64,000 nt of DNA from Psammoneis japonica (GCA_008632985.1 QPGO01000015.1:745998-809997); one strand, 5' to 3'. Shown: positions 11,309 to 64,000, counted from the first letter of the stretch. Program-made: numbers and translations. The notes: generated from the sequence alone by a model not told the origin.

Positions 11309-11800
11309 TCACCCGGAGCACCGCCGTTCAAAAATTAACCAACCTGATCCCATTCTCTTGTTTCGGCAATGTGCTGATGTGTCCCAACTCGCTCGATCAG
11401 CAACTGGTAAATCAGCAGTCACATTATAAAAACTGCTTGCTACAGCCATGACAGTCCCATCTGCAGATAATGCGACCTTGCTGCCAAAGAAATCCCCTGG
11501 CTGGTCCATTCCGAGAGTTTGACCACATTGTGTCCAAGTCGATGTTTTGTGGTCATTGTGAACCACAGCTCTCTTGTTTTGCGTCTTGGTGCACCGACCG
11601 CCGCAACCAACCTTGTGCGTTCAAAAGAAAGAGAGAATCCAATTTCACCATTGATGACTTGTCCATTGATTGGATCACCCACTGGATCCTTTAATGATGA
11701 TGCAGAATTGAATTCATGCACAGAGACCTGTCCAGAATCCTCTCCACTGAAATCAATTCTGGGTGCCACAAATGCCAAAAAGCTTGCCTGAGCTGCTCAA
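11309..11800 (-). pseudogene. Degenerate FG-GAP-like beta-propeller repeat gene fragment at the edge of a transposon block
   Basis: WTQCGQTLGMDQPGDFFGSKVALSADGTVMAVAS and VGDPINGQVINGEIGFSLS...AVGAP lie in different frames. No start or signal peptide is visible. Confidence 0.6.
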
Positions 11801-14289
11801 GGACAGAGAGTCCTGCCAAATTGATTTCCCAAAACTTGGCCAATGAGTTTCTGCTGTCCAAGTTGGGTCCATGATGATGTGTTGCAGTTGCATCATTGGA
11901 GTGCACAAAGTGACCCCGAATCTTCTCCGCTGCTCTTGTCATCTGAAAGATCTCCTGTGGTGACAATGTCCTGTGTCTGAGAGAGAAATGAGTGTGCCAA
12001 GTGTCGCTCTTGCCTTCACCCAATGCTCCATGGCTGCATTGCACTTGAACATCCAGACAGGATGTGCATCATTTCCACTTTCCCACAGATCTCCAACAGC
12101 TGCTGTTGTCAATTGAAGACAAGGACCTGCCGGAGTTGTTTTTGTTTTGCATTCTCCAGCCAAATCTTGATCCATGCAGGCCCAGTTTTGGGTTGTTGAA
12201 GCAAAGTGGGATCTCACAGTGCTCTCAGTTGGACACCTCTTTTGCATCATGCCATTCAGGTTCAGCACAATTTCCCTGTGCAATTCTGTGCATGATGGCA
12301 TTTTCTCTTGACCATTGTTTTTCACATTGGTTCACTCTTTCAAGCACCTCATCTTTAAAGACAGTCATGTGTTGAGTTTTTTCTGCACTGTGTTTGTTTT
12401 CAGTGGCTCCCATGTGGTGTGGCTGGGCTTCTCCATTTTTTCAAAACACAGCAACCTGGTTTGCCATGTGACAACAAGCATCCAGTCGGGTGCAGTTTCG
12501 ACTTAAAATTGTGGCACATGATGGGCACTTTTTTCTGACAATGTGCCAACAGTGTTTAAATCTGCCATGGTCAGCATTGGCGTTGGTGGTGGTGAGACAA
12601 TGGCACAACTGATTTCTTGCTTTGTCTTCTTTGGTGTCCTGTTCTGCAAGAGCCTCCTCCTCTTGATGATGGTGCTGCACTCTGCCAACATGGTTCCTTT
12701 TCCTGAGCTGCTCTTTTCTTGGCATCTTTTGGATCTCTTTCCAGAGCAACAACAGTGCAATGACTTGGTGGTTTGTTCATCAAGCAATGTTTCTTCTTCT
12801 TTGATGTCATCTTGGTGTGGTTGTCATGTGGAGTTTTTCTGTCATTTCCTTCTTGCCTTGAACCCAGTGCAGAGTCTGCAAGCCATGATTTCAAATTTTT
12901 CCCTTCTTGTTTTGACCTCAATTGTCACCAAGGTGAGTGCCCAGCACATCTTCTCTTGAACTTGTTGTGTTGAACCATCTCATTTCTTTCTGACACATTG
13001 CTCTTCTGCATTTGTTTTGTGGCAATGACAAGAATGAGATGCTTGTTGTGTGTTGAACAAAAGCTTGTCTCCCTCTCTGTCAAAAAAGCAGCAGCAGCAG
13101 CAGCACAGTCCAAATTGAAAGCAGCTCTGCCCTTGTTCATGGTTGCCATTGTTGCAACTTCTTCCCCCCTGCCCTGAAGTCATCCATTTTCACTTTGCTG
13201 CAGCTTGTGTTGAGGGGGACAAGGAATCACAGTCACAACTTTTGACAAAAGCAACACTCTTTTCCCCAGGTTTCTTTTGTGGCTGCATTGTGTGAATTGC
13301 TGTGCATTGCTTCCACCCTGTCTGCACTGTGCAAGGAGGAAGCCATGTCAAAAGTCAAGCCACCATGCAGGGTGTCAACACATGCTGCAAGAGCCAGGCT
13401 TGCAAGACTTGCATGCTCACAGTCTCTCTCTTGTTGGCTGACACCACAAAACACCAACAAAGGGACAAAAAGATGACACCCAAAAATTTTGTTGCAGTCT
13501 TCAGCCAAAACAATGCACGCTGCCCTCAAAAAGTTCCAAGAACCACCTGCTTGGGCCGCCAATTGCTGAACATGTTTTTGGCTGCCAAACAGACCACCAT
13601 TTGGGTTTCTTTCAGCTCACTCTTCCAAAAAGCCAAGAGCAACCAGTTGCTTCCACTGGCAGACAGTTCAACACTGTTGTTGACATGCCATTGAAGGAAA
13701 CTGTGTCTTTGGTTGCCCGTGCTCTCCAAGAAGACCTTGAAAAACAAAGAACAAGATGCTCCTGTCCCCACCACACCACAACAAGAGAGCACCCCACCTC
13801 AAGTGCTGTCAACAAGGTGCACTCCCACCCCACACCAAGAGCACACCCTGCTGCCCCCATCCACAACAAAAAGCTCTCTCTGTTGGTGCTGCCACTGCCG
13901 CTGCGTGTTCCAGCAGCACCCAAGCTAGCTGCACCATGCCTGTTCTGTCTGTGCACATCAGAGCACATCAAGACCTCCCCATCCTGCAGCCACAAAAGCT
14001 CCAATCAACAAGGTGAGTTTGCCAAGGTCATCATCAGCTTTGCAGCCACCAACCAACAGAGTTCTTGACATGATGCAACCTGCAAAAGCTCAGCAAAACA
14101 GCTGCAGCTGCTGCCTCCAAGTGCCACCTCAACATTGCACTTGCACATCACTGTGATGCACAAGGTGTGCAGAAAGTCAAGCCAATCCCCAGAGGTGTCA
14201 CCAGATTGTGCACTGCCCACCAACTGCAACAGTCAGACCAGCTCAACCATGGGACAGCAACACTTCTGGGATGGCTGGAGCATTGGTGC

Positions 14290-15140
14290 TGGGGCAACAC
14301 ACAGCCTTTGCACCATGATGTTGCTGAGGTGACAGCAAACCTTGAGGGCCCAGCCTTGTGTGGGTCAAGCCCCAATGACACTGTGCTGCCATGCTGCACA
14401 TGCAGAGGCCCCCTTTGCTCATGTGAATTTCCTCCTTCCAGAGTCACCCACTGCCACCCAAAGCTGCTTTTGTGATGGCATGTGTTGCAGCCACATGTCC
14501 AGTCAGGCAGGTGCATGGTGGTGCCCTTTGTTCTTGGAGCTTTTGAGGGTGGCATGCAGACCACAAACAATGCCAATGTGCCTTGCCAGCTGCCTCTGGC
14601 TGTTGCTGGTTGGTCTTGCCCCAACAACCAGAGAGCTTTGCAGTTCTGCACAACTGCCCCACTTTGCACACACTGGCTGCTGCTGGCTTGGCTCAAATGC
14701 TGTCAAGCTGGGCAAGCAAACACTGCGTGATGCAAACACACTGTGCACCTTGGGGGTCTCAGCCATTTGTCATGTTGCTGCAGTGTTGTGGTGACTGGCA
14801 ACCCCTCGCATCTCATGATGTTGCTGACATGGCTGCAAATCTGGAGAGCCTGGTCTCTCAGGTCAATCCCTTGACAATGGCACACTGCAGTGCAGCGCAT
14901 TGCAAAGAATTTGCCCCTCAATGTCTCCCCCCCTTGCATTTCCTTGTGTGAATCTCCTCCTTCCAGAACCACCCACTGCCATCTAAAGCTGCATCCATGA
15001 TGGTGCATGCTGCAACTGCGTGGCAACCAGGCAGATGCATGGTGGTGCCCCCTTTGTTTCTGGAGCTTTTGTTGGGATGTGGCATGCATGCAGACCACAG
15101 ACAATGGGGTTGGATGGTCTTGCCCCAACAACCAAGTGCT
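14290..15140. repeat. Internally duplicated degenerate repeat unit, with a further copy at about 23630-24200
   Basis: Shared strings gcatggtggtgccc...ggtggcatgcagaccacaaacaatg, cattgcaaagaatttgcccctcaatgtc and ttggctcaaatg at about 14510, 14900-15100 and 23640-24130. Confidence 0.75.
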
Positions 15141-17441
15141 GCTCTTGTCACTTTCTTTGGTGAAAAGGTCAGAACAAGGGCTTGTGCAAGAAAAATGATG
15201 TGCCCTTTCTCACCCCACAACATCAGGCACAGCTGGTTGACTCAAGGCCTCAGACAACCTTGTGGCAAAGCAGCAGTGCAGAAGTGCTGGAGCTGTGCAG
15301 ATGCTCAACAAGCTGGGGGCAACACACTGGTGACCAAGGCAAGAAGACTCCCATCCAGAGACCTTCCCAGAGCTCCAAGTGACCAAGTTGCTTCAGATTT
15401 GCAAGATCTTTGTCTTGCCCAGCCACCCAACAAGGTTGGTGCCCACACTGTTGTGGCCCAGAATGCCTCAATTGCTGATGTGAAATGAGGCAAGCATTCA
15501 GAGCAGTTTTGAGGCACACATCATGGTGCCACCAGCCACCAAGCCAGTGAGCCCAGGATTTGCAAGGAGCAGTCAAAACATTCTCACACAAGGGGCCAAC
15601 TTTTTTGTTTGGCTTGTCAGTGCTGGAACAATCACAACAAATTTGCCCACAGGCTGCACTGCATCTGCTGCACATTCATGGTGGTGAAAACCACCTGCAA
15701 AGCAGCACCCCCAAAGCTGCAATTGAGAAACCCCATGCAACACACCTCTTTGATGGATCTCAAGAGTGTGCTCCCTCACTGCAACAACTGGCACCATGTG
15801 TGTCTGGCAACCTGCACTTTGCTGACACACACACAAGGGCTCTGGCATCTGTGAAGACAAGGACTTGTGCAGTGGAGCTGTAATGCTGTTCTCAGATCAT
15901 GCTGCTCCACCAGTTTTGGTGACAGCAGAACAGACACCATGACCCCGCCTCAGTTTTTGGTGCAGTGAAAGCACAGGTTTTGAGCCTGAGGTGAAAGGAA
16001 ACTTTGCACCACATTGCCAGCTGCCCCTCCACTTCAGCATTGGCGCCACTGGGACAGTGGCAGACCTTGCCAACAGCAATGCAACCCTTGTGTGCTCAAC
16101 CATGGAGCAGCCACATCCACTTGAACAACTCACAATGAGCAGAGTCCCCCCTCAATGACACCTGAGCTGCACTTCAATGTTCAATGCTGCTGCCAACTTG
16201 TGCAAACAGACACGCATGTTGGCTGCTTTGTCAGAGCTGCCCAGGAACAGAGCACCCAGAGCAGAGTGCACCCTGCTGCAAATGTTTGTTCACACAGCCC
16301 ACCATCAATGAAACTCAACACCCACAGGATGAACAAGATGATGGTGCTGAGTTGACATGCACAAGAAACCAAGAACTCCGCAAGAGCAACACTGTGTGGC
16401 CCACACAAAAAAAGGCTCTCTCTCCTGTCCTGGCTTGTTGACACACATTCAATGACCCCAGCTGTGACTTGCATCTTGCTGCCACTCACCTGTCCATGCA
16501 ACACAGTCTTGAAGGACTGCCCCAAGCCAGAAAGTGTTGCTGCCTGCAGCTGTCACACCAGACCCTTCAAGAGTTGTGTGTTTCCTTGTGCCATGGCTGT
16601 GCTTGGATGCTCTGCCAGAGGCTTTTTCTTGAAGTTCCAAGAAGCTCCAAGCCATGCAGCCCTGGGTGCACAAAAGCCTGACTCACTGAAAATGTGTGCA
16701 CAATTTTGGACAACTTTTGTCCCCTTGTAAAGACCCCAATGCATGCCCAGCATGAGTGCAAGAGCTTGCTTCCCTCCAACTAACTGCACACAGCTCTGTC
16801 ACAACACTGCAGGCCATCATGAGCAGGTGGTGACACACTGCCAACTGCCACCAATGTAGATCAGCTTGCCATCACACATCCAATGAGACACATGGCCCAT
16901 TGCACACTGCACACCATTTCCTGAGGACATTGCCAACAATCTTGCTGCACTCAAAAAGTCAATGGTGCCACCATCAATGTGGGCTTTGACTTGGTTGGGG
17001 CACTGTCCTGTTGTGTTTCATGGTGACCAGCAACATTGGCCTTCAAGAACACACACACACATGTCTCAACCACACAGGCAACTTCTTGGGGGGCATTTGG
17101 TGGCAGCAAAAGGGCTTCACCACACCACACTGCAAAGCTTGCCCACCAAGCTCCTGTGATAAAAAGCAGGCCACCAGCACTGCTGCCATGACATGAGCAG
17201 CCAGTGCAGCTGTTGCCCAATCTCCCAAATTGAGCTGACAATGATGAGTCACATGTGTGCCTTGCCAGCACTGCTTTTTCTTCCATTTCACCATCATGCA
17301 TTTTGCCCACAACAGAGCAAGCCTTGATGGTGCACTCCTTTCTGCTGACCTTGATGCTGCACAGCGCACCATCCAACATTGTTGTGTGCCAGCCTTCTGC
17401 TCCAAACTAGCCATGACCCCCCATTGTCTTCTTGCAAGTCC

Positions 17442-19543
17442 AGGTTGGTTGGTCAGATCAATTGTCTGTTGAAGCAAGAAGGAGGACCCTCCTCCTGGCC
17501 AGGCAAAACCAGTCCCTGCAGCAGTCCTGTGAGCTGGATCTCACCCCCCTTGTTGGTGGAAAAGCTGGCACTGACATGACTGCTGTCCACATTGCCCATC
17601 TTTTCAACATGTGGCCTGGCAAGCACTTGACCACCCCACCCAAGACAGCAACACTGCTCTGCATGCAGCAGACACATGCTTGTTTGCAGGTGGCATTTGC
17701 CCAGACATCTCTTTGCTGCCCCTGAAGCTCACCTTCATGATGCAACCTTCATTTCATTGACCTTTGCCACCCAGGCCAGAGGAGTGCCACACAAAGAGAG
17801 TCGACAGCACCAGGTTGCTCTGGGTGCCCAGATTTGTGCCTGGTGGCACAAGCTGTTGTGAAACAAAGGCCAGCAGTGCTGCACCTGCAAGCACACAGCA
17901 CATTGCCTGACACTCCTTTGTTCCTGTGTGCTTTCAGGCTTGACCCACTCAACATCTCCAGCTTTTGCTTCAGGAGGGCAGCCAGCACTGCTGCTGGCAC
18001 TTTTGTGCACCCATGCTTGTCAGACTCTTGAGCTGCTGGCACTCTGACAAAATGCTCCACACCAGCATCTCCACCTGCAGGCAGAACTGGCTGGTCATGA
18101 ACAATTTCAAATGAGTGCCATGCTTGCAACTTTGTGCTAAATTCCAACATGGATGCCCCAGCTTCTCCCAACAACACCCTCAAAATCCTCACCAGTGCCA
18201 TGCACCACAGCCCTTCACCACCAGCCAATCCTCCCCCAGAGCAGCTGGTGCTTGGTTTTCCATTTGCACCAGGAGCATTTGCAAATTGTGTGCAGACCAG
18301 AGCTGGGGCGGGGCTCTGCCACCCAATTCCAGGGGTGCTGGACTGAGTGTGGTGGCCCCAACTGCACTGGCGCATGGCCATCTCCACTCCTGCACAAACT
18401 GAATGGCTCTGTTTCCCAGCTGGCCTCCCTTTGCTGCTTGAGAGCATGCAACCAGCACACCCTTGGATTCCACCATTGGCGCACTTGCCTGAAGTTTTGA
18501 CAGCAGGGTGAGCAAGAAAAAGAGCAGTGTGACAAGCACAGTCCCTGTAAAGTCCCAACACCTGTGACAGGCCCAGCACCCACCTGTTCAGGCCACCACA
18601 GGTTGAGAGTGTTTTTTGGCTGACATGCCATGTGTGAGAGACTCCGCTGGTTGTTTTGGTTTCTTTCAGCTTGTTGTTCTTCCAAAGAATGGCTGTGAGA
18701 GAGCAACCAACACTTTGGTTGAAAGAAAGTTTTGTGCTCACACAACTCTCACCCTCTCTGGCCCTGCCAGCTCATGGCTTTGGGAGAAAGCTCTGGTTTG
18801 GTTTGCTGCTGCTGCTGCTGTGTGCTGGCTGGCAGCACTTGAAGTCACAAGCCAGGTGCTTTGCACAAAAAAGTGTCCATCAGCTGTTCTTCTTGTTGTT
18901 TCCCAAAGAATCTTGATGCCAGATTTAAGAATGGCATTTTGCTTCTTGCTGCAAGCCAGCTGTGCCTGCCCATGGTGTCCACTGGAAGTCACAAAGTGCA
19001 AGAGCAATGCAGATTTGTTGCACACAGAGAGCCAGATGTGAGCGTGCTGCTGCGGGAGTGCTCTGCAAGCAAGCTCTCCAGCAAGAGGCCATGGCACCAC
19101 AACAGATCAATCAGGGTCAGCATGTCACCTGGCCAGTTGTGCAAGAAGTGCACAGTGGCTCTGCTCCTCCTCTGCTCTCAGCAAAAAAAAAACAGGACAT
19201 TTGAACATGGCGCTGAATTTCCAAGTGGCTGCTGGGCTGCACAAAGCTTTCTCTGCTTGTGGTGGCTTTTTAATTGCCACAACACCAGACAATAACTTCA
19301 AGCAAGAGCCATGGGGTGCAGCAAGGCACCAAAAAGAGAAAGCTGCAAGAGAAAAAAGAGAGGGAAGAAGCTGCTCCTGAGCATCCAAACCATGGCACTT
19401 GGCAATGAATGGGCAGAAGTGCAGAGCACATTTTTTGAATTTTAGAAATGTGAAGCAGAAAGCAGTGGCCACCCTCCCAATGTAATGGGAGGTCAAATCT
19501 TTTGTTGGGATCCCAGCAGGTTGGATGGAGCAGACCAGATTGA
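17442..19543. repeat. Copy A of a long unclassified repeat; copy B is at 26782-28446
   Basis: Colinear with copy B from aggttggttggtcaga to ggag(c/t)agaccagattga. Confidence 0.85.
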
Positions 19544-19545
19544 CA

Positions 19546-22500
19546 AACTGTTGGTGGAGAAATCACTCCTGTGACACATTGAAGTCTCTGTCAGGTTATG
19601 AGCTCATGTTGACCTCTGCCGTTGCACGCAGCAGCGCCTCTGAGAAACCTCCCCACTGTTTGAGTCTGTCCGTTGTTGGACAGACAAAGTGGCTGACGTG
19701 TTTTTGGCTTGCTTTCCAGAGGCTAAGACTTTGGAACGATGTCTGCAACATGCTGAAGACATTTGCAGAAGACTGAGAGATCCGCTTGAGGATCTGCTCA
19801 CAATTTGAGTGAACTGCTGTTTTGTCACTGATTTGTTCTGTTGAGACACTTTTGGCACTTTGTCAGAGCCAGCCTCTGACTGTCTGAGACTGTGGCATTT
19901 GCTGCAGCGCAAACTACCTTTTTCTTTGAGGACAATGACCACATGGGTTTGCCCAACTCAACTTGTGTGCAGCTGGCAGTCGAAGGATTAGAGCAGGTGA
20001 ACAACCTCAATGACTTCAATGAGGACAGTCTCACTCAAGTCTTTGAGAACCTCAAGCATCCTGGAGGCACCATTCAAGATCCCAATCCCGGTGCAGCTGC
20101 TGGAGCTGTCATTCAGACACCAGCATTTGTCACAGGTGCGAAGAGTGTGGTGTGCCTCAAGGTTGCAAGACAAGTGGCGCACAGTGCTGTGAAACTGTTG
20201 GCCGTGATTTGTCGGCAGCCAACATGCATTGGAACCCTGTCCTCAGGAACTTTCAAGAAGCATGGAAGGCGCTGAAGGGCAGGAAGAGTGAAGATGATCC
20301 AGAAGTCCCAAGGACTCCCGATTGTGAAGTGGGTTGAGGCTTTTCATGATCACCTGCAACACATGATCAGAACTCGGACTGCTCCACTTTCATGCACAAC
20401 CAGAGAAATTGTTGATGTCCACACAATGGCTCCACCACTGGCCATGAAACAACCCCACTCAGAAGAACACGGTTCTCTCAAAGATGGGCTTGTGGCTTGA
20501 GCCAGGCACACTCATCCTCTGTTTTGAGAAGACAACTCCACGGTGTGTCATTCCCCAGAGGAAGCTGCTGCCCATGGGACCTCCTGCACAGATTCAATCA
20601 AGCCTTTTCAGCGCAGGAAGGATGGAAGGGGTGCATGGATTGCACTGATGGCACAACATGCTGGCAAAGACAAATGGGTGGCTGAACTCAAGAAGCAAGA
20701 GGACTTCATCCACAATCAAAAATGGAGAGCCCAATCGAATTTCTCCCTTGACCAATTCGTCTCTCAGCATTGCAATGCCTTTGTCTCCATGCAACAGTGT
20801 GCTGAACATGTCACCTTCCAACTCCCAAACAAGTGCACAAGAGTCACGCACCTCTTGGATGCCATTGAGACTTCTGATGCTCCATTGCAGGCTGTGATGG
20901 CTCTGGCCCGCAATGACACAGGATCAAATGGAAAACAAAACAATTTTGAGGCAGCAGCAGCATGTGTCTTGCCTTGTGACCCTGTGGCCAAGAAACAAAC
21001 TGCAAAATGGCCTCACGCTGAGGTGTCTGAAATTGACTCCAGCACCATTGAGTCAGGTGTTGGCAAATCAGGTGTGGAGCCATGCTGCCACACTCACTCT
21101 GAGTGCCAACAATTGAATTCTGAACAAAAGGCCAAACTGAAGGAATGGCACTGCTTGGAGGTTTCTTCTGCCATGAAAAAGAAGGATGGCAAAACCAAGC
21201 CACCGCCGGCTGGTTCACAGAAGAAAATCAAGAAGATGATTTTGGAAGCTGTGGCCCCCGAGCTAGCTTCTCACCAGAAGAAAGAAGAGAAAGCCAAAAT
21301 TGAGTCAGAAGAAGCCAAGGCAGGCACCTGCCTGCTTTTCCTTGTCCAGGCAGCATCACATCAGGCTCCTGCTCCTGCTGCACCGTTGCCTCCTCCACCA
21401 CCACCGACAGCATCAACGGCCCCGGCTCAAGGTGGGTTGGTTCAGTTCAAGCCACCATCGATCTTGTTGCAGTCGATCCTGCAATGTGCCGGGAGCAAGA
21501 AATGAAATGTTGGGACGGCACTGTGTTCTGATGTCTCTTTGCTTGAGGGGAGAAAATGTGCCATCTGTGCCATGGAATCACAGTCATTGATTCCCAATCA
21601 TTCTGTTCTAAAATTCATTGCTCGTTGTGCAATCTCTGATGCTGCTGCAGAGACAATCAAAGAGACTCAAGACAAGAGTGAAAGCACTGAATTGAACTCG
21701 CATGCCAACATGGTCATTGTTGGCAAGGGTTCCTGTGCACTGAACAACACTGGTCACGTGGCTCAAGTCAGTCCTTTCAATCCAGAGTGCAAATCAATGA
21801 AAGATGTCAGGATTGTTGACACTCTCTTGGCATGCAACTGCCCATGCTCTCTGAAAACTTGCTTGCTGGTCCCACACAACGCCCTGCATGTTCTGGTGAT
21901 GGACCACAATCTGTCACCACCTTTTGTGCTGCACAAAGCAGGGGTGGTTGTCAATGGCATTCCCAAAATGCAAGTCCAAGGGTGGGACCAACAGAGGATG
22001 ATCATGCTCTTGTGTTCCTGGAATTGAAAACAAGGATCCCATTGTCTCCATGGGGCACATTCTTGCACTTTCCATCCAGATGACCTGCGATTCAGGAGAT
22101 GCAAGACACCAAAGATGCACTGGTTCTAACTCCATCCAGGCACTCCTGGAATCCTCATTCAGACTCCCATGCTTGCAATGAGGAAAGCATGTTGAACTTG
22201 GAAGGGAGCACATCTGACAAACAACATTGAATCATGATTTTGGTTGAAGACCTGTCTGACTGTCGCTGTCCTCTGTGATGTCAAGTGTTGAGTCTGGGAT
22301 TGTTGACTCCAAGTTGTCAGTTGTTGATTGCTTTGAGGCCAGTGATGACTTGAGTGGATGCCCAGGAGTCATGCAGGAAGCTGACAATTCCCACGTTGTT
22401 GTGTGTGACATTTCTGCCACTCTCAGCCCCGTCTCACTTGCTGAAGGCTCACAGGATCAACGTGACATTGGGGTTTCTGCATCTTCAGTGGGATCCATGA

Positions 22501-23620
22501 TGGTGGGACTGGAAGATGACTCAGATTGAGATGACAATGTTGATTTTGATGTTTTCAAGGATGTCCAACTCAAAGACATTGTTGAAGATCTCATGGGGCA
22601 TTTAGAATCTGATCCCAAGGTCCATGTTGAAGGAACCACTGCATCCAAGTCTGAAGGTGCATCTCCAGAACACTTGTCCAAGATCTGGAGGACAAGCACC
22701 AAGGATGCTGAGTGGACCATCAACATCACCACACAACTCCTTTGGTGTTCTCAAGACCCAGCTTTTTTGAGAAACTGTTCCACAAATGACAGGATGCTGC
22801 AGCATCACCAAATTGCCCAGCACTTCTTCATGGGTGCTTTCTTTGCAAGTGAGAAGGCTGGCAAGTCAACTCAAGGGCACTCGTGCATGCAGCCATTTGT
22901 TGCTGACAAGGGATTTGTCCATGCGGTGCTGATGCATGCCCGCTCTGAGATTCCCAAGGCACTCAAGACGTTTGCCAAGAAAGTGGGTGCACTGGAGGCA
23001 ATTGCACATGACAGCGATCCAGCACAGAAATCCAACAAGATTTGACAGTTTCTTCATTCCATTGGAGCCAGCCTTTGGCCATTGGAGAAAGGAAAACCAT
23101 GGTTGAATCATGCCAAACTCCATGTTGGCTTGCTCAAAGAAGCAGTGCGCAAGGACATGAAAGAGTCCTTGTGTCCTTTGCCTTTCTGGGATTGCTGCTT
23201 TGAGCAATGGGCGTGAATCAACAACTTGATGGCCCGGAACCTGTTTCAACTTGAGGGGAGAAATCCACATTTCTCTGTGACAGGGGAGGAAGGCAACACC
23301 CCAGTCTTGCCCAGTTTGGATGGCATGAATGGCGCCATTTCTGTGAGCACACCAACTCCTTTCCACTCAATTGTGAGGCCCTTGGACATGTGCTGGGTCC
23401 TGCAAAAGGAAAAGGGAATGACATGGCTCAGTGGGTGCTGAAGGGAAATGGGAGTGTTGTTCCATGACGTTCTGTCTGACCCCTTTCAGTTGCCGAGTTG
23501 AACAGCGACACTGAGAAATGCAAGCATGAGATTTTTGACCAATGCATTGAATTGCACTGGGGCTCTGCGGCTCATCCTGTGTCTTCTGCAGGCAAGCAGT
23601 TTCTTCCATGTGGAGACAAA
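19546..23620 (+). mobile_element. Truncated, degenerate Ty1/Copia (diatom CoDi-type) LTR retrotransposon: gag, protease and integrase; RT and RNase H absent
   Basis: LTR end tca at 19591-19593 followed by the copia-type internal tRNA-Met PBS ggttatgagc. Gag SIKPFQRRKDGRGAW...AGKDKW. Protease TELNSHAN. Integrase RNCSTNDRML...DKGFVH...KALKTFAKKVG. Confidence 0.9.
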
Positions 23621-26770: not shown

Positions 26771-26781
26771 AAAATTCTGCA

Positions 26782-29208: not shown

Positions 29209-29314
29209 GCAGATCTTGTTTGCAAAGAGCATCGTGCGGTTCTTGAAAATAGACCATGGAAACTGTAGCAGTATTTCATGGATCAAACCACTGGTGCTGG
29301 TTTTGTTTTCCCAG

Positions 29315-46940: not shown

Positions 46941-46963
46941 TCCAGTTGCACAACATTGCCACC

Positions 46964-50762: not shown

Positions 50763-52223
50763 GTTCGGACGTCAGTTGAGTTGAAGAAGACCAAACACAC
50801 GAGCTCCGAAAAATGTAAAGTGAGTGATCACGAGCATTTTTCACGTGGAATGGGACACCAGCCGAAAATCACATTTGGCACAATTAAGTCCTTCATTTTT
50901 GATCATTTCGAAAATCGAAAGGTGAGTGTGCACCCGAAAACACATGTAAAGTGCACACTTGCCATTCGATTTGGCAAAAAACGGATTTTGAAAAAGTCAT
51001 TTGCGCTGAACCTAAAAGGCCAATGATGGGAATCGAACCCACTCGGAGCACCTGGAGCTGGAACAGGCCTCAAGAGAAAGTGCGGCGATCCCCACAGGCG
51101 CCATCAAAGACAGCATGGCCACAGTGGCAGGGGGAGAGCCAGTTGAGCAGGAAGAAAGGGTGGCAATGGCATGGATGTCAGAAGCAAGGAAGGTGGAAGA
51201 AGAGTGTGATGGGATGAGAGGGAGTGAAGGGAGAGGCTTGCAAGGGGAGAGAGGAGGAAAGAGAAACTGAGTGTCAGAGGGAGTGCCGTCCGGGAGGGCA
51301 GAAGCAGCGAAGATCTGGTGATGATCATGGCAGAGACCAAGGCGGGCAAGACAGAAGGTTGACAGGGAAGCAGTGGAGGTTGCAGAGTCGGGGTCAAGGA
51401 TGGAAGCAAAGGGGTGAAAGAGATGCCACATTGGCCCCAAAAATGGCCCCTGCACGCGTCTTGCTTTTGCCGGCACTGTTCAGCAGACCACCGGTGCTGC
51501 CACTCTCTAGAGTGGAGAGTGGCCACTAGAGAGCAAGTACGGTAGAGCTCTAGCAGAATAGAGACTACGAGATGTTTTATCACTTCATGAGCGTTGCGTC
51601 TTACAGTCCCTACATCGAGTGCCAGCAGCCCCTTCACGCCGCCGGTGCCGAAACAGATCACTTCATAAAACATGTTATTCCTACAAGCTTACTGCTTCTC
51701 GTACCGACCCCAGTAGCATTCTACGTTACATACCAGAATTTTTAATTATTTATTTAGTCATTCATATATCATTTTATGAATTGACAACCACCGATTTTTG
51801 GCACGCGACACCACCACGATGACACGTTCCGTCGAACGAGTTCGGGCCCACTCGGAATAATTACCAAGCCATTTGGGTACAGCTATATCAATGAGGTACT
51901 TGCGGATCATATATGTCTCATTGGCTTGGTAATTCTTTGTGGTTGACAAATAAACGACGGCAAAGGATTCACGTGTTGTTTTGTCGTGCTTTGGCGTCAA
52001 GAGCCAGGTTAGTCGAGTTAATCCCAGTAGAAAACCTACGTAGGCCTACTCTGAGCCACAAGCGCGCGTAATAAGCTTGTATCCGATGGCACTAACTGAC
52101 GAGCTTGCTAATGAACAGATATTGCAACTGACAGAACAAAATGAGAGAATCATAATTGAATGCCTAGATTAATTATGACTGCTGGAAACTTCCAACCTTG
52201 AGGCCACGGAGGAACGAACCAAG

Positions 52224-54381
<2,158 letters not shown>

Positions 54382-55219
54382 GATGAAAAAGCTTGTTTAC
54401 AAATGCGGTAGGGCCCTACGTCGCAAATTGGGCTGCACCGAATTTTATGAGAGAACCAAGCCGCGAGTGAAGTTGACGAACGTCCCGCAGAAATCGAATG
54501 GCATCTTCTGCGTTTCGCGTAGCGTTTGTACCAGCGTTTACGCAGAAAGACTCGCGGAAGCTGAATACCAACAAGCGTGTGTAATCTACATACGATCAGC
54601 TTGGTATTAGTCCCTGTACCTACAGTACCGTATGATACACAGTACGTATGTAGCGTAGCTCGAGTGCGATCTGGTCGTGAATGCCAAACCGAATTAACGG
54701 TAAAATGCCCTGTACATTTCTACGTCATTGTACTGCAGAATTATATGATTCCTCTATCCATGAACATATTTATCCATGACGAAATTTTTAAAAAGTTGCG
54801 CCATTGCCATCTTGGGGGGCGTCTTTGGAAGTGAGATCGTCGAAGGCGGTCTGATCGCCAGTGCGTTGGGGGTTTTCCAGTACAATTTGTACGCACAAGA
54901 AACACGTAGGATCTGTCCAGGTCCCAATACCCAATCGCACTGATTGACAGACTGTTTTAGTACAAATTCTACGTAACTTTCTTCGACAGTCTCACTTCCG
55001 AAGACGTCCCCCAATCTGCCTGTGGTATTTGTGGTACAGTATTTAGAAGTATTATGCTGAAAGCGAAGGAAGGCTGTTGAAAATTTGACAAGGGGTGATT
55101 GGCAGTTGCAAGATTGAAGGTGGGCTTGCTTCCGTTTGTTGGGACGTAAAACGACAACGTGAACGTCGAAGGATCAACAAGAATTCAATGAAAATGGCGT
55201 GAAAAATGATGGAACCAAC

Positions 55220-56202
55220 ATGATTGAACGTGGCTTGGAATCATACATCAGGTCTTGTCTGTTCTGTTGTCGTTTTTTCTTCCTGTTGGTGTGCTGTAAT
55301 GTCTCATCGGCACTATCCCTTGCCCTAGCCGAACGTCGTTTATTGGTATTGGGTCTCGGGCCTGTAGGCCAAGCCGTGGCTAGTCAAGCGTTGCATTCAG
55401 AAGACAAGGACATCCGAAAAGACTTTGAAGAAGTGTTCGGGACTGTCCGTGCTCCACAAGAAGATACGGGAGATCTTCGAAAGATATTGTTCTCACGACA
55501 TAAAATTCGCCAAATTCTGCCTCTCTGCACTCACGTGTTAATCACCATTCCACCCCAGCTCAACGATTTGTGCCTAGGGGCTGTCTACACAGATATGGAG
55601 GAACTTCTAGGTCGAAATGCATGGGTTGGATTTGTGTCTACAAGCGGTGTGTATGGCAATCATGATGGGGCCTGGGTAACCGAGGAATCTCCCTTGCCGT
55701 GCGGAGAGAATACGCAGGCTGCGACATATCGGGACGCAGAAGATGCGTGGCGACGACGAGCTGCAGCTAATGGATGGACCTTTTCTGTTTTTCGGTGTGC
55801 TGGAATTTATGGTCCTCAACGATCAGCCTTGCACACCGTGTACAAGAAGGGATACAACCCAGAAAACGCGCCACCTTCAAAGGAAGGCGTGACGAATCGA
55901 ATTCACGAGGTTGACGTTGCCCGTGCCATCGTATCAGCAATGAAACATTGTGATTCCTCACGTACTGGCGATCACCGTGTCTTCAACCTCTGCGACAATG
56001 AACCAGCACCTCGATCGAAGGTGATGCAACACGCTTCACACGTACTGCGCGGTCATGGGATCTCCATTAATACCAACATAAAGATTCTCCACTGACTGAA
56101 CGCTCGAGACGACGAAGCGCAGATATGAAACGAGTTTCGAACCGACGCATGCATACAGAGCTGCTGGATGATGATGGTGGGCTGAAGTTCGATCCTGAAT
56201 GA
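55220..56202 (+). CDS. NAD(P)-dependent epimerase/dehydratase (YeeZ-like atypical SDR) with an apparent frameshift near 56090
   Basis: Motifs VLGLGPVG, FVSTSGVYGNHDGAWVTEES, FRCAGIYGP, NRIHEVDVA and FNLCDNEP. KRVSNRRM follows in another frame. Confidence 0.82.
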
Positions 56203-56849
56203 CTCTGCGACACCATGGTCAGTCATCAAGTAAATTGGTTCGAACAGCAATTCTGTTGGTAGGACCAGTGTGTTGGGATTTTGGCTATCTTTCTATTTCT
56301 TTTACCAGTGTTGTCGCAAATAAAAATTGAAACGCCTTAAAGTCCTTGAGGTCCTTCGTCATTATCATTGCTTTTCTCTGTTTTCGAATCATGCCTATAG
56401 TCACAACCTTCTCAGGAATATCAGGGACCACTGCCTTTGACACCTTCTGGTTGAGAAGAAGCTCCGCAGCAACTGCGAAATCAAAGATGCTATTAGCGCT
56501 CCGCCTGATTCGCTCGTTTCATGTACTTAGTCTTGAATTCTCGGCCGCAACTCGAAGCAAATCGCGAAGAAAGTCTTTCTGTTGGAGAGCCGAGTGTGTG
56601 AGACAAGAATTCAAATGCATTAGAATGCACCAGTGTGCGACGGTGCGTACGATGAATGGAATCCTAACAGGTCTCACCTGGGTCCTTTGCCGCCCGTTTT
56701 GGAAGCCATGTCGTTGTCATGTTTTCTACTGCCTCGACTCCAACCCCAGGGAGATAGACCAAAATTTGGTGTGGGAAGTCACTCGAAGTGACAAGCATTC
56801 CACCACCTTGCAGAGGCAATTCTGCCATCTTAGCTTGTTCAAACTGAGA

Positions 56850-59800
56850 CAGGTTGCGGGGATCGCGATGCTGCTGTTGGCCTGGGCCTTGCACTCCAGG
56901 CTGCCAGCATCTGCCCAAGCACCAATCTGCAGCATGTGTCATGAAGCAAGTTGATCACATCCCACATGATGCTGACCATCTGTTGTCAAGGTCATCTTGT
57001 GGTCAATTGGCTGTGCACATTGTGGAGACCATGCCACAGTCTCAATCGATGCCCAATCTTGGTGCACAGGCAACAAGCACATGCATTGGACACAACAGAC
57101 CAACACTGCTGCAGCCAAACGATCATGCAAGCAGAGCTTCATGCCAAAGAGATGCAACACTCCAATGGTTTGCACATGAATGACCATCAATCGGAGGCTG
57201 CCACTGGTCTTTCATGCTCCAAGAACAAAAAAGGGACATTGCAAAAATGCCAAGATGCTTTCGTGCATCAATTGCCTCTCCTGCTTCTTGGCCCATGGCA
57301 TTCCACCCACATTCACTTTCTGCCCAGATCCAAGGCAACTCCAATGACCCATGCCAAGCATTGAGTGGTCATTTCTTTTCAAAAACCTGTTCTTCCTTTG
57401 CTTGGTTGGCAAGCACAAGAGCCCCGTGCAACAAGTGATGAAATGCACACAATTTGAGTGGTGAGTGGTGGGCACCACAAAGCAGAGAATTTCCAAGATC
57501 ATCAGACAAACACAATGACCAGCACCTTTCAGTGAAAAAGCTGACAGTGAGATGTTGCCAAAGATTCAAGTGAGATTGACTCAGCTCTTTTCCAACCCAC
57601 TTTGCCAGCAACAAGGGCCAAGTCATCATCAAAAGAACAGCACCAGCACAGTGAGATGTGAGCCATTCTTTTCCTCTGCACGGTGCTGGCACAGCAGCTG
57701 CCACACCACATTCAGCTGACATCAGCACTGGAGGAGTCTTCAAATTTGAGTTTGAGGCCATCAGACAGACTGAAATGCTCTGCACTTGATGCTGCATGGG
57801 CTCAAATGCCAGGCTGAAAATTGAGGTCAGGGCCCCATGTGGTGAGCAGCACACATTGTTGATGGGAAACTCAGAAGCAACATTTTGAGCAGCTCTGTGT
57901 GTCACATCAAGTGCCTGTGTTCCATTGACTGGAGATGAGCACCATCAGCAATCACTTGCACCAACCAAGCAAAGATGCCTGTCAGCTGTGGAGCAAAAAA
58001 AGCACCTTTTGCCCTGCAGCTGATCCCAACATTTGTGGGCATGTGCTGTGCAAGGCAACTCACTGAACTGGCTGCTTCATTTGGGAGCAACGCTCATGTT
58101 TTTTCCCTTGCACTTGGCCACAGCACTTCCTGCAGCCACTCCTGAACAAAGACTCTGCCCAATTTGTTGCTGCCCTGCTGCTTCGACAAGCATGGTTGTC
58201 ATCAGAAAGAGCACAAGCATGCAGCATTGGAGATGGGATCAGACAACAGGGCAGCTTGATGATGCTCTCTGGTGTGCTGTGCTTGAAGAAAAATTGCAAA
58301 TGAAAGCAGAACAAATCATGAAAAGTGGAAAATTGCGAGATTAAATTTTGCTCTGTGATTTTGGATTTCTCCAAACAAGAAGCTCTCAATGGCCCAAAGC
58401 ATTTGCACTGCTCCACAGAGCAAAGGCCTTTCAGAGAATCCAGTCATGACAACAGATCATCCAGATGTGATCAACACTGACATCTCATGTGTCAACATCA
58501 TCCATTGTTTGCATCTGCAATTTCAGACATCAAATCAATTCTGTGTGATTGACCTGACCTTTGCATGCATCCATGATTGCCACGCAATTGACACACCTGA
58601 CAACACACAATTGCAAGCACATGCACACTTTCTTCTGTTTGACAATGGACAACACATGCTGTGCTTGCCTTGTCAATTGCACATGTGAGTCATTTGTCAA
58701 ATGGAGTTGTTCGATGGACATTGACTGTGTTGACAATGTCACCACATTTTGATCTGCACTGTGTCATTGGTGTGCACCATTGTCATCTCATGAGGCTCAG
58801 AACAGGGCTGTTCTAATTTTTGCAAATCTTTCTCTGGCAGGATCTTTTCTCCCATGCTGCATGTGCATGGAGCCCATTGTGCATTCTCTCTGGTGTTGTT
58901 TTTGTTCACAACATCTTGTTTTTGTTTCTGAGTGAGCTTCTGGTCAGCAATGTGTTGGGCATCAAATGTTGTGTCTCCTTTGAAGACTGGTTGTCCTGGC
59001 ACAGCTTGTGCAGTGGCATGATGTGTTGAATGTGCTGCAAAGGCTGCTGCAGACAGCATCCCCTCAAATAGATTCTGTGCATCCAGGGATGGATTTTGTA
59101 AATCAAAAGTGCACAGCACATTGCCCAGCCAGCACTTGATGCACATGCTCAATTGCACCATTTGCTTGTTGACTCTGTGCAGTTGTGGGCATGCATTCAA
59201 TGCCACAATCATCTCAAACCACAGCTCTAAATTGGTGTCCAATGAACTCACTTCCATGGTCACAAGCAATTGACAACAGTCAAGGACATCTGCTCAACAT
59301 GTTCTTTCTAACAACCCAGTGACAGTTGTGGATTCCTCATTTGGAATTTCTGCCATTTCAAACCATCCTGTTTGCCAAACACTTCAGGACTGGGTTTTTT
59401 CTGTGCTTTGATGCATCTTGTGTGGTCCAATGAGATCCACACATGTGGTCTTTCCCATCACGCTGATTCTGTGCACTCCTTGGGAGGCAAATGACAGCAT
59501 TTCTTTTGTTTCTTCTTAAATTTCTTGCTCGCCTCACATTTTGACATGCATTTTCTCATGTTCTCATGCAATGCACTTGCCTCTGTGAAAAGTCTTTGCA
59601 TGACATGTCACATCTGACAATTTAGCGAGAATGTCTTTGACCAGTTTTTGTTCAGCATCAAGAACTTTGTGTGTCAACAGAAAGAAATCCTTGTCGCAGG
59701 ATCCAGGTGCAACTTTCTCAGCCAGCTCTTTGTTGCTGAGGTTTTCCACAGGTGTTTTGTTTTCTTCACACAAGTCAACTGATCACATCTGCAATGGCAC

Positions 59801-62800
59801 TGGCCTTGCTCCTGCTGAGACAGATCATTTCAGGACTGCACTCCTCAGTTGTCAGATGCCAACACATGACTCTGTCCATTGCAAATTCTCATTGGTGAGA
59901 TTTTTGTGATCTGTGCATGCATTTGTCTGTTGGCCAAACAGCACATTTCAGAATTGATCAAATGTTTTTGCTGTTGACAGAAGTTCTTTTCCCGCTGCAG
60001 TGTGTCATGCCTGTGCTCCATTTGGCTTGCGGCCATGAAAGTCAATGGGTCTGTTATTCTGCACTGTTGTGACTGCTCCCAATCAAAATTGCTTGCACCA
60101 CCAGCACATGTCTCAAAGAAGGGTGTGTGTTGAAATTTGGGTGTGACAATGACATGTCTTTCAACACAACTGGCTTCACATTTTTGAAAGCTTTTGTTCT
60201 GTGCCTGTCCATCGCCACTCAACCTCCTCAGATGAGGTGAGTTTGGCCAAAGGAGCAAGCACACAAGATTGTTGAGACCACATGTCTTGGTGGTGATTGA
60301 TCTCACCAATGAAACATCATTTCAGTTCCTTGCAAGTTGCAGGAGTTGCAATTGTTTGAATTGCCTCAACTTTCTTGGGCATTGGTCTGATGCCATTTTG
60401 GGTGACACAAAAGCCCAGACAGCTTGCTTCAGGCTCAGCAAAAATGACCTTTTGGCATTGACCTTCAAACTGGCTTGTTGGAACCATGTGAATGTTGTCT
60501 CGAGCTTCTTTTCACATGATCTTTGAAGTCACCTTTTGCCAGGCATGGCACCATGGCATCAGGGCAAGTTCTGACAAACTCTGGTCCTGCCATGAGCTTG
60601 CTTGTGTGCTCCTGAAAAATGTCTGGAGCTCCACAAATTCCCGTTGGAAGCCTGCAGGGCTCATGCTTGCCCCGCAGCATCACGATCATGCACAAACAAT
60701 GTGTGTGTGGTGTCAACTCAATGTTGCAGCATCCCATGTTCAAATTGAGTGAGGTTGCACACATGAATCCTTCTGGTTTCTGTGGCATGTCCTGAATTTT
60801 GGCGAAAGATGCAGAGAGCACATTGACCTTCCATCAAGCTCATGGAAGCGGCAGAAGTCAAACCAAACTCAACTGTTTTCCTTTGGGCTGAACAAAGATT
60901 GGAGCTGCCCACTCAGAATGGCCCGCTCTTCTCAGGACTCCCAACTTGCACAGTCAGTTTGCTTCCCAAGCAGTTGCCTCCAAGGCTTGTGGAACTGGAA
61001 AAGGTTTCACATGGCGCAGAGTTGCGCCAGTGCAAGATCCACCAGTGTTCCTGTCCATTTGCCTGGAGAACTGTCAAAAAGATGTTCAGAAGAAGTTCAA
61101 ATGATCCTGTTCCTCTGGGATCAGATGCCAGTCACATCATTGAGATCAGCAGCATGACAGTCAGTGTGGAGGATTTTTTGTTGATCCTGTCATTAAGACC
61201 ATTCATGGCATGAGATTCTTCAATGTGACCAGCAATCAGCTTTGACACTTTGGCTTTGAAGAGTGCATCAACATTCTTCACTGGCACAGTTGTGTCTTGT
61301 TCCCATTTGATTTGTCTGCTCACAAAATCAAGTGTGACTCTAAGACTGCTCATCAAGTCATGTCCCACAATCATGTCATGTTGCAAAAGAAGTGGCAGCA
61401 CTGTCAACATGTGCTGTCTTCTCAATTCAACTCACACTTGTCAAATGCAGGCAGTGAGAACTGAGTGGAGAGCATCAACTGTCAGTTGTAAAGAACCTGC
61501 CCTTGGTTTCCCAAGTCTTGGTGGCAGATTTCTCATTTCTCAACTTCCACATTGATTTGCACAAAATTGTGGTTGATGATGTTCTGCTGTTGAGAAGAAA
61601 GCACAGAGGCTGATTTTTCTTCTCCCCCCAAGGAAGCATTCACACAAGCAGCAATGGCTGCTGGACCAGTGTGACTGCTTTGGCCCTTTCTCCAGGCTTC
61701 TTCTGACATCCAGCAACATGCAACAAGACTCCTCAACAGGAGCCAGTTGTTCCTCAAAATTGCTGCAAGTCACTTTTTCAAACCAACTGTTTTCCTCACT
61801 GAGGATGCCTGAGTCACATTCCTCACTCTTGTCCATCTGATTCTTTGTGGAGGAACTTGTCTTCAGAGATTTGTTGGTTGCCTGAGTGATCATGAAATTC
61901 AATTCTTCCTGCCTGTTGAGAGGTGTTTTTAGCATCGCAACAAGACCATGTGGGATCGCCATTTGAACATTGCCATTTCATGTTTTGTTCAGCATTCTCT
62001 TGGCATTCTTTTGCTGGCCTGGTCTTTTGATGCCCAGCACTGGCCCACATTGTGGGTGGCTTTCTCATGATGGCTGCACCACTTGTCACAGACTCAGATC
62101 ATTTGGCACCAGATTGGCAACCATTTTTGGGACCACAATGAGATCCATTCTTGGCTTTGGAACCAAACTTGTTGGCAGTGTCAGGCTGGGCATGAGTTTG
62201 GTCAAATGTGTCCTCTCAGTGACCTCCAGGCACTTCAAGAACTCCACCAACTTGTCAAAGGCATGGTCTAAAATTTCAAAACCTTGCAGGGTTGACTGAT
62301 GTTGCCATCAATGAGGTGCATGATTGCAAGCAATGTTGCAGAGCTCATCTTTGTCCAGATTCTGTTTGGACTCAAAGGGAGGATGACACTTGAAATCTTT
62401 GTCAACTTGTTCCTGCATTCAATTGGCAATTTCTTGGATCTTCACAGAGTCCAGCTTCTTGAGTTCACGTCACAGATGCATTTTCTGGCTCTGAAGTGCA
62501 TTCTTGGGAAAGACATGGTCAGAGAGGCAATGATGACATTTTTCAAAGGCTCCTTCATCTTCAACATTCATTGCCTTGTTCTCAAAAACTTGCAGAGCAT
62601 CCCCTTCCAATGACCCATGCACAAGTCAGAAATTGTCAGCTTTTTCTTGATGTTCTGGTCCACCTGAGTTTGCTGAATGTTTTTGAGAATTTGATGTGCT
62701 CAAGGGACTCCCTGCTTGTTGTGGTGCACGACAATGAATGTGTGAGCACAACTCTTCTTGTCTTTTGGATGAAAACACTGCTGCATTTTGAGGTGCTGGC

Positions 62801-64000
62801 TTGGTTTGAGTGTCTTTGGCTCAGAAGTTGACTCCAGCGGTGCAGGTGCAATCTTCTCCGGCTTGATGGCAGACACTGGAGGCAAAAGCTTTGTTTTTGC
62901 ATTTTGCCCTCTGTGGTGTGTGTGCACAATGCACCATGCTCAAAGAATGAGTGCTGCAAATGAAAGTGTGACAAATCATGAAAAGTGGAAAATTGTGAGA
63001 TTAAATTTCACTCTGCAGTTTGGGGTTTCTCTGAGCAAGCTCTCAATGGCCCAAAACATTTGTGCTGCTCCTGCAGAGCAAAGGCCTTTCAGACAATCCA
63101 GTCCTGACAACAGATTGTCCGGGTGCAACCAACACTGACATCTCATGTGTCAACATCATCTGTCAATTGCATTTGCAATTTGAGACATCCAATCAACTCT
63201 GTGTGATCAATCTGACCTTCACCCTCATCCACCATTGTTGTGTGGCTGACATGTGTGATGACACATGACTGTGAACACATGCAATTTCTTCTGCTTGGCA
63301 ATGCATGCTGCACTGAATGTGACACATCAAATGCCACATAAAAAATCTGCAGGAGTGTGGAAAAATTCTGGGCCACAGGGCAGAGCAAATGGGTCATTTG
63401 ATGATGTGTCTTTGAAGCCAGCGGGCTTTTGTCTCAAGGAAATTCTCTGCTTGCCTGCAGCCAAGCTTCCAAAAGCTGGTGGCAAGCCTGAAAGCAGGGT
63501 CCCACCATTGCCCCTTTCCATGAAGACAAGCCTCATGACAATGCTTTCTGGCTGACAACAACTGGGCAATCAACAAAAGCAATTGAGCAAACTGTGCTGT
63601 GACCATCTTTTGATGTTGGCCAGGCCAGCAACACTTGAAGAAAGTTTGGAAGCTTGTGCACCCCCCGAATGTTTTCAAAAAGTGTTCAATGGAGAAGACA
63701 TGCTGACCAAGCACTCAAAAAAAGTCAGCAGCAAAGTTTTTTGAGTGTGAGCAGTTGGAGGTTGGGGTTGGTGACAGCAGCAACACACAACAAAAACTCA
63801 CAGAGGTGTGTGCAGTTTGGCTGGAGAAGTCTTTTTCACAACATCAGCACCTTCTTGGTTGCTTTGCTTGGATGTGACAACAAAAAAGATGCAAGGAAAC
63901 CTTCATGACAGCCACCATCAGAGTGATGAGGCTCTTTTGCTGTTCCTTGGCCCAACAACCTCTCCCCAGCTGCGTGCTTGCAGTCACTCAGATTGTTGCC
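56850..64000. other. TpA- and CpG-depleted block C, running off the window
   Basis: Only about 15 TA seen by eye in 57000-64000. Confidence 0.95.
58295..63310 (-). mobile_element. Degenerate Ty3/Gypsy LTR retrotransposon with both LTRs
   Basis: LTRs at about 58295-58650 and 62955-63310, both starting tgcaaatgaaag. Minus-strand order is gag, protease (HDMIVGHDLM), RT (KIQDM...ATSLNLNMGCC...RLPTGICGAPDIFQ), then RNase H and integrase remnants. Confidence 0.88.

Follow-up and report, generated by a model that had tools for sequence, protein, structure and literature searches.

The stretch analysed here, a window of 64,000 nucleotides from the genome of the diatom Psammoneis japonica (GCA_008632985.1, QPGO01000015.1:745998-809997), contains three blocks from which nearly every TpA dinucleotide has been lost, and we consider it very probable that these blocks are old, silenced mobile-element DNA that was rewritten in place by a TpA-specific A:T to G:C hypermutation acting beside CpG decay, in a process like that reported for Bigelowiella natans. 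The blocks, referred to below as B1 (11469-28309, 16.8 kb), B2 (40790-51508, 10.7 kb) and B3 (56832-64000, at least 7.2 kb and cut by the end of the window), retain 34, 46 and 16 TpA, corresponding to observed/expected ratios (o/e) of 0.03, 0.07 and 0.03, with CpG o/e values of 0.13, 0.52 and 0.11, B2 being the least CpG-depleted of the three. TpG and CpA are raised to o/e 1.54-1.94 across the blocks (1.74-1.92 in B1). The gene islands that serve as controls (1-11468, 28310-40789 and 51509-56831) have TpA o/e of 0.54-0.68 and CpG o/e of 0.98-1.03, and the GC content is near-constant between blocks and islands (0.46-0.50 versus 0.47-0.49). These ratios were tabulated per kilobase across the window, which is the whole scope of the block and island comparison, and the block limits came from mapping of TpA-free gaps; they place the three TpA-poor, TpG/CpA-rich blocks of an initial annotation, made from the same DNA, correctly to about 100 bp, and agree with its description of gene islands nearby that carry normal TpA and CpG.

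Among the 34,726 block dinucleotides there are 96 TpA, where the island frequency of 4.15% predicts 1443, and the binomial P for the deficit, taken block by block, ranges from 1e-106 to below machine precision. The borders are sharp at 100-bp resolution: across position 51508 the TpA counts per 100 bp are 0, 0, 0, 0 and then 9, 6, 11. At two of the left edges, 11469 and 40790, the loss of TpA extends about 200 bp farther outward than the loss of CpG. If the blocks are presumed to have begun with an island-like composition, the TpA deficit (3.88%) and the CpG deficit (4.18%) sum to 8.06%, compared with an excess of TpG plus CpA of 7.86%, and this balance also holds within single blocks, for example in B2, with a deficit of 6.13% and an excess of 5.66%. 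The CpG deficit covers about half of the TpG and CpA excess. Residual CpG shows no periodicity in B2 or in the 19-28.3 kb region.

Two protein remnants within the blocks allow the original sequence to be compared with its present state. The first is a Copia-type remnant in B1 (21593-23626, plus strand), which corresponds to the N-terminal half of a Ty1/Copia polyprotein from gag to integrase (tblastn, residues 11-686 of about 1470) and from which the reverse-transcriptase half is missing; a search with its segment 22530-23420 retrieved 258 public proteins at E<=1e-3 (best 1e-83, 60% identity), and the homologues are mostly of about 1450-1500 amino acids with PF07727 (Copia-type reverse transcriptase). 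The second is a nearly full-length mobile-element protein remnant in B2 (47078-50390, minus strand; tblastn, residues 3-1136 of 1157), of which the segment 48129-49502 (minus) matches 1058 representatives at E<=1e-3, the best at 1.8e-81. It belongs to a family of proteins of about 1150 amino acids that we call the Pfam-less family, since the six full-length homologues scanned with Pfam all lack a domain; apart from a lead to DUF7869, a protein atlas look-up gave nothing but eukaryotic clusters without a name, by which the label Sola-like is neither confirmed nor excluded. Both are dead elements, truncated and interrupted by in-frame stops, and at least two unrelated mobile-element families are affected. 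Of the element classes first assigned to the blocks, Copia was found, while Gypsy, long interspersed nuclear element, Sola, miniature inverted-repeat transposable element and terminal-repeat retrotransposon in miniature were not confirmed, Pfam giving no domain in 224 block open reading frames (ORFs) of at least 80 amino acids (24, 106 and 94) and none in the stop-read-through frames of 20400-26600 (plus) and of B3 (plus).

Tyrosine is the sole amino acid whose codons must contain TA. At columns conserved in at least 70% of 30 Copia-type homologues, and of 14 homologues of the Pfam-less family, the conserved tyrosine is retained in 0 of 12 and 0 of 10 cases, respectively. All 22 lost tyrosines are now Cys (TGT or TGC, 12 cases) or His (CAT or CAC, 10 cases), each of which is a single TA>TG or TA>CA transition away, with seven His and five Cys in the Copia remnant, and seven Cys and three His in the Pfam-less one. 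Conserved His, Trp, Gln and Met are retained in full in both families. Conserved Arg is retained at 6 of 23 columns in the Copia remnant, its replacements being four each of Gln, stop and His, three Trp and two Cys; all 17 belong to the set expected from CGN>TGN or CAN, and CpG decay is therefore seen separately in this remnant. In the Pfam-less remnant, which lies in the less CpG-depleted B2, 11 of 18 conserved Arg remain. Read against these homologues, TpA has been changed to TpG and CpA, and not the reverse.

A comparison with relatives of the Pfam-less family separates the two kinds of loss. Among 80 metagenome loci encoding the family, collected with two search patterns, one of which demanded Tyr and so biased the sample against mutated copies, every locus has a TpA o/e within 0.27-1.09, and all loci below 0.5 are GC-rich (0.61-0.65) with TpG and CpA near 1. 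Five marine eukaryote loci (L078, L080, L079, L008 and L046) combine CpG o/e of 0.02-0.19 with TpA o/e of 0.57-0.70; therefore CpG decay alone spares TpA, and the family is not innately TpA-poor. The same five loci uphold the point made in the initial annotation that deamination of 5-methylcytosine does not remove TpA. The deamination of 5-methyl-CpG, judged from the sequence, appears to account for the CpG loss, for part of the TpG and CpA gain and for the exchange of Arg for Cys, Trp, stop, His or Gln, but not for the whole pattern, as it leaves TpA alone and as TpA in B2 is far more depleted than CpG. Relatives equally free of TpA with Cys or His at the same positions, which had been raised as the contrary case, were not met with among the 80 loci, which all keep TpA, and the homologues carry Tyr. 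In public proteins, 7 of 150 representatives of the Pfam-less family have less than 0.5% Tyr, and, once the consensus set is put aside, the 95 representatives with three or more conserved Tyr columns covered retain a median of 80% of these tyrosines. Four representatives from ENA and JGI metagenome assemblies, P0223, P0224, P0227 and P0188, keep the conserved Tyr at 0 of 3, 0 of 8, 0 of 4 and 1 of 4 columns, with mostly Cys or His instead, and these may belong to this species or to others.

Both strands are affected alike, and repeated sequences in the blocks bear on when the changes arose. The block totals of TpG (3780) and CpA (3869) are near-equal, and a runs test gave no same-strand clustering of TpG or CpA in the blocks (z -1.8 to +1.8), so that a processive burst on one strand is unsupported and the pattern fits many independent events. 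In B1, a direct repeat of about 1.6 kb lies upstream of the Copia remnant (copy A, 17328-18910, plus) and recurs in the same orientation on its other side (copy B, 26604-28236, plus), as found by self-BLAST and aligned with MAFFT; copy A and 26795-28236 are 71% identical over 1555 columns by self-BLAST and 77% identical by MAFFT, and the two copies may be the long terminal repeats (LTRs) of the Copia remnant. In the MAFFT alignment of this pair there are 37 adjacent double transitions with CA in one copy and TG in the other, versus 22 across the seven other classes (1-6 each), along with three TA/TG pairs. A direct repeat in B3 (58295-58647, plus, with a partner at 62955-63303; 78.5% identity) differs by 58 transitions and 12 transversions, with 17 CA/TG doubles versus six in all other classes, and eight further repeat pairs, pooled, give 34 CA/TG doubles versus 20 others. 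A 113-nt pair in B2 (46240-46352 and 46577-46689) is 88% identical, with 13 transitions, no transversions and four CA/TG doubles. Such discordance arises when an ancestral self-complementary step, TA or CG, is resolved independently in each copy, and therefore the change followed duplication and took place on chromosomal DNA. The second, locus-restricted conversion of TpA to TpG or CpA, proposed in the initial annotation, is consequently supported from four sides: the uniform fate of the tyrosines (22 of 22), the mass balance, the discordance of repeat copies, and the CpG-poor relatives that keep TpA.

The three blocks are unequally advanced, which bears on relative speed. In B2, TpA stands at about one-tenth of its island frequency and CpG at 58%, by which TpA would have been lost about four times faster per site than CpG, if both losses began together; patches with partial TpA remain in B2 at 41.9-42.9, 44.0-44.4, 45.4-45.8 and 50.7-51.0 kb. 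The 96 surviving TpA, a small sample, were compared with those of the islands by sequence context. Survival relative to the islands is highest in TTAA (0.43), followed by CTAA/TTAG (0.25), whereas no ATAT and no ATAC/GTAT are left, and ATAG, GTAC and CTAC have ratios of 0.015-0.033; the order of contexts is unchanged after normalizing to the TpG and CpA pool with the same flanks. Per strand, TpA retention by the 3' base is 0.062 for A, 0.028 for G, 0.011 for C and 0.007 for T. The process prefers TAY, which is RTA on the other strand.

The initial annotation knew of no described system of this kind, a statement now overtaken by a 2026 preprint that reports the same signature in the chlorarachniophyte Bigelowiella natans. 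In mutation-accumulation lines of this organism, 231 of 302 nuclear mutations fell in two viral inserts, one of a nucleocytoplasmic large DNA virus (NCLDV) and one of a virophage, and 230 of the 231 changed A to G or T to C, in every case at a TpA, with a de novo rate in the inserts about 1000-fold over background (Mettrop et al., bioRxiv 10.64898/2026.01.13.699255). The same preprint describes, in the B. natans genome, 324 TpA-depleted predicted coding sequences, in which reverse-transcriptase and DDE domains are over-represented, as well as 124 clusters of 1-kb windows poor in TpA and rich in CpA/TpG, and its authors propose an ADAT2-like enzyme. As far as its main text permits comparison, the two systems share the TpA target, the TpG and CpA products, the action on both strands and the limitation to integrated foreign or mobile DNA. 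They differ in that B. natans belongs to Rhizaria, whereas the host here is a diatom (Stramenopila) and the targets are transposon blocks; in that the depletion here is saturated, with TpA o/e of 0.03-0.07 versus 0.45 in a B. natans NCLDV insert; and in that the B. natans rate was measured directly, while ours is a comparison of sequences. The words CpG, context, trinucleotide and diatom are absent from the main text of the preprint, whose supplements may hold flanking-base data; CpG depletion and a 3' neighbor effect are seen in the diatom blocks. Our literature search returned only this preprint, and no report of the TpA>TpG/CpA signature in diatoms or other stramenopiles. P. japonica represents a second major lineage with this kind of hypermutation, in the most extreme form so far.

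In the mechanism that we propose for the hypermutation, each TpA would end as TpG or as CpA according to the strand that was struck, and the decay of methylated CpG would act in the same domains and yield the same two dinucleotides. The mutations would accrue site by site across many generations, more quickly than CpG decay, and the process would fade out over no more than about 100-200 bp at the block edges, sparing the adjacent genes. The domains would correspond to the silenced transposon chromatin with CG methylation that has been described in diatoms; transposons of these organisms are described as CG-methylated through DNMT5a, the loss of which in Phaeodactylum strips the methylation and derepresses young transposons (PMC9998398). 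A deaminase recruited to such silenced chromatin could turn the adenine of TpA into hypoxanthine, which pairs with C, and the hypermutation may serve genome defence. As to the chemistry, a candidate that we put forward tentatively is a TadA/ADAT-like deaminase that would act on adenine in DNA and be led to its targets by repressive chromatin or by small RNA. In tRNA, the wobble adenine edited by TadA or ADAT invariably comes after U33, and the bacterial enzyme TadA recognizes UAC; these habits would suit a preference for TA and for TAC, and would not explain TAT. A more ambitious proposal, which we regard as rather unlikely as a whole, is that diatoms possess a dedicated defence enzyme for the deamination of adenine in double-stranded chromosomal DNA, working at TpA and most readily at TAY. 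Its action would be directed to silenced mobile sequence, with borders sharp to about 100 bp, and its ancestry would be shared with the B. natans system, which would make it an old defence of the stramenopile-alveolate-rhizarian lineage and the first natural eukaryotic adenine base editor of DNA.

One rival to adenine deamination keeps the mutation process and changes the altered base. A TET/JBP-type dioxygenase might oxidize the thymine of TpA to 5-hydroxymethyluracil or 5-formyluracil, which mispairs with G, so that T becomes C. An A>G change and a T>C change on the opposite strand look alike in sequence, and the context, given above as TAY lost and TAA kept, is equally readable as RTA lost and TTA kept. 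The sole published proposal for the signature is adenine deamination, and we judge the thymine route improbable. A TpA bias of 5-hydroxymethyluracil in dinoflagellate DNA would speak for it, but a literature search for such a bias found nothing.

That the signature is a sequencing artefact, in which modified bases of heterochromatin were miscalled in a long-read assembly and the true sequence still holds TA and CG, was weighed with a public DNA run (X1; one sample), which contains 42% of the sampled words of 42000-50000. Modification of CpG, and possibly of adenine, is expected in such domains, and in the gene region the window and the X1 contigs differ by seven gaps in 2677 bp, which are small indels of a long-read-like kind. 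The X1 contigs, at k-mer depths of 49-66, nevertheless reproduce the TpA-free sequence of 40741-41258 (1 difference), 41343-41859 (7) and 51046-51713 (3), and a contig at depth 65.7 covers the B3 edge (56553-58000) with four differences; the X1 reads are taken as accurate because the k-mer depth is near 50 and the clean contigs reach 315 kb. Among the 40 differences listed, out of 709, only three convert TG or CA of the window to TA, all in multi-copy DNA, so that reads carrying TA at the block sites, the sign by which a miscall would have been recognized, are not what X1 presents at single-copy depth. Miscalls are also not expected to yield graded patches, or independent TG and CA states in repeat copies, and an artefact is in our view very improbable. 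Within the same listed differences, those in single-copy block DNA are transitions in eight of eight cases, versus four of nine in the neighboring gene region, and one of the eight, at position 41606, has TA in the window and CA in X1, which hints that the hypermutation may be ongoing. The summed depth of X1 contigs over B2 is 1400-63000, versus about 52 for single-copy DNA, and B2 is therefore built of high-copy families, among them a very high-copy short repeat at 46005-46671 (summed depth 63308 in its bin) that holds the 113-nt direct repeats described above.

Editing of RNA, by an ADAR-like A-to-I activity on element transcripts that was then fixed through reverse transcription and re-insertion, would draw on a preference of ADAR-type enzymes for a 5' U (discussed in bioRxiv 10.64898/2026.01.13.699255), and one of the affected elements is indeed a retrotransposon. 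Editing of the sense strand gives Tyr to Cys only, however, and the Copia remnant has seven His beside its five Cys; TpG equals CpA overall, the CA/TG discordances post-date duplication, and non-coding, unrelated neighboring sequence is affected up to a shared sharp edge. The mutations that the preprint reports for B. natans also arise de novo in single-copy integrated DNA, and we hold RNA editing to be most unlikely. Weakest is the notion that no mutation process took place, with elements that were always TpA-poor or with TpA removed by selection, which can point to a mild under-representation of TpA everywhere (island o/e 0.54-0.68) but is extremely improbable, given homologues with Tyr where the window holds Cys or His, ordinary TpA in 80 of 80 related loci, and dead elements (in-frame stops, truncation) on which selection is implausible.

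With regard to the hypermutation itself, sequence comparison shows the loss of TpA, the direction and strand symmetry of the change, its timing after duplication and its separation from CpG decay, and several points weigh on the other side. The evidence is wholly comparative, with no de novo mutation observed. Single TA>TG/CA changes make up 22 of 111 substitutions at conserved columns in the Copia remnant and 11 of 54 in the Pfam-less one, and single CG>TG/CA changes 29 of 111 and 7 of 54, the remainder being other transitions, transversions and multiple changes; the two dinucleotide processes together explain just 46% (51 of 111) and 33% (18 of 54), and the element copies have therefore undergone ordinary ageing as well. 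The CA/TG discordances are not divisible between TA and CG ancestors, and because of this the in-place argument for TpA by itself is carried by strand symmetry, three TA/TG pairs and one polymorphism. The accuracy of the X1 reads is deduced from the contigs and not from a recorded platform, and the one sample may be the assembly's own. The 3' context pattern comes from 96 residual sites, and it is unlike the preference of ADAR and matches the substrates of TadA/ADAT only partly. B3 and parts of B1 (11.5-17.3 and 23.6-26.6 kb) have no element class, some TpA-free stretches (40.8-41.3 and 56.8-58 kb) have one copy only when matches of at least 85% likeness are counted, and the targeting of mobile elements is demonstrated for two families and for high-copy DNA only. 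As a link between duplication and TpA loss, B2 is highly repeated, yet the two stretches just named are single-copy at that threshold, and hypermutation itself erodes likeness.

The hypermutation in the P. japonica blocks resembles the repeat-induced point mutation (RIP) of fungi as a transition-only mutator that acts at the level of DNA on repeated or mobile sequence, leaves neighboring genes intact and destroys reading frames. Fungal RIP changes CpA to TpA and leaves DNA that is AT-rich and TpA-rich, whereas here TpA is erased, CpA and TpG are raised and GC is unchanged, so that the earlier description of the two as opposites is borne out. A likeness to the APOBEC3 and ADAR hypermutation of animals lies in deaminase-type, context-specific transitions in mobile elements as a defence; those enzymes act before integration on one-strand cDNA or RNA and are strand-asymmetric, while in the blocks both strands are equal and the changes came after integration. 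We know of essentially no natural enzyme that makes A into G in chromosomal DNA, and the adenine base editors of the laboratory were evolved from a tRNA deaminase.

A second independent lineage in which the process is saturated, in a group with genetic tools, makes a search for the enzyme tractable through features shared with B. natans, the logic being to seek what B. natans and P. japonica have in common and what diatoms free of the signature do not have. The process adds a mutational arm to the control of transposons in diatoms, alongside CG methylation. It also has consequences for annotation: TpA-free DNA cannot encode tyrosine, TAA or TAG, and therefore long false ORFs appear, domain searches fail, as in the Pfam scan of the block ORFs, and such blocks will be mis-annotated or missed by transposon pipelines. 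Screening of element proteins for absence of Tyr with an excess of Cys and His could reveal the process in public data, and, if the defence-enzyme proposal is true, the Tyr-free metagenome copies of the Pfam-less family would mark the system as widespread in the sea.

ORF length is uninformative in the blocks, because TAA and TAG are nearly impossible there; shuffled block sequence yields ORFs of up to 368-522 amino acids, and B2 alone surpasses its shuffles. The B2 frame in question is 561 amino acids long (42677-44359, plus), where the longest frame in 200 shuffles reached 465. Pfam assigns it no domain, and of 5032 candidates of 308-982 amino acids that share words with it, none is related at E<=1e-3; we leave it unexplained and do not accept it as a gene, as TpA-free DNA produces long ORFs by itself. 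At the outer border of B1, a 178-nt segment (19366-19543) has its second copy at 28289-28446, and the TpA-free zone stops at 28309, about 140 bp short of the repeat end. The first copy lies in a patch within B1 (19271-19989) that retains 8 TpA and 12 CpG per kilobase, and the second is likewise only partly mutated, so that the repeat end seems refractory in both copies.

The genes of the three islands are ordinary eukaryotic genes with few interruptions, with Pfam domains that include FKBP, an Fpg-UDG fusion, SNF2, PDZ, RRM, bestrophin, RING and polyubiquitin, and a Pfam scan of 16 island ORFs gave no deaminase domain. In the fusion, a glycosylase of the Fpg/Nei type is joined to a uracil-DNA glycosylase of family 4 (PF01149 and PF06831, plus PF03167 in relatives), and its gene stands head to head with the gene for the SNF2-type helicase (32050-33789, minus, and 33949-35355, plus). 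It is conserved across diatoms, with 218 proteins at E<=1e-10, its best named matches being from the raphid pennate diatoms Cylindrotheca, Fistulifera and Nitzschia (49-55% identity) and a further match reaching 65% identity, which marks the host as a diatom that has no near kin in the protein collection searched; nothing found here ties the glycosylase to the hypermutation.

In the first island, an inverted repeat of 125 nt (8621-8745 and 9558-9682; 92% complementary, 812 nt apart) sits in the kilobase that is richest in TpA across the window (TpA o/e 0.98, CpG o/e 1.28). Should the repeat be a young terminal-inverted-repeat element, it would be an example of mobile DNA spared by the hypermutation. 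The polyubiquitin gene (52229-54049, minus) consists of eight 228-nt units of 89-94% DNA identity with normal TpA, 700 bp from the edge of B2. Its units, compared as a control for double transitions, gave seven CA/TG and four AG/GA in 28 non-independent coding-repeat pairs, which was too weak and was left unused. A second run, X2, reaches a depth above 18000 over the polyubiquitin gene, covers only genes and behaves like RNA, and its near-lack of cover in the blocks is not evidence that they are silent. One of its contigs joins 40010 to 40090, across a 79-nt intron (40011-40089) of the RRM-domain gene.

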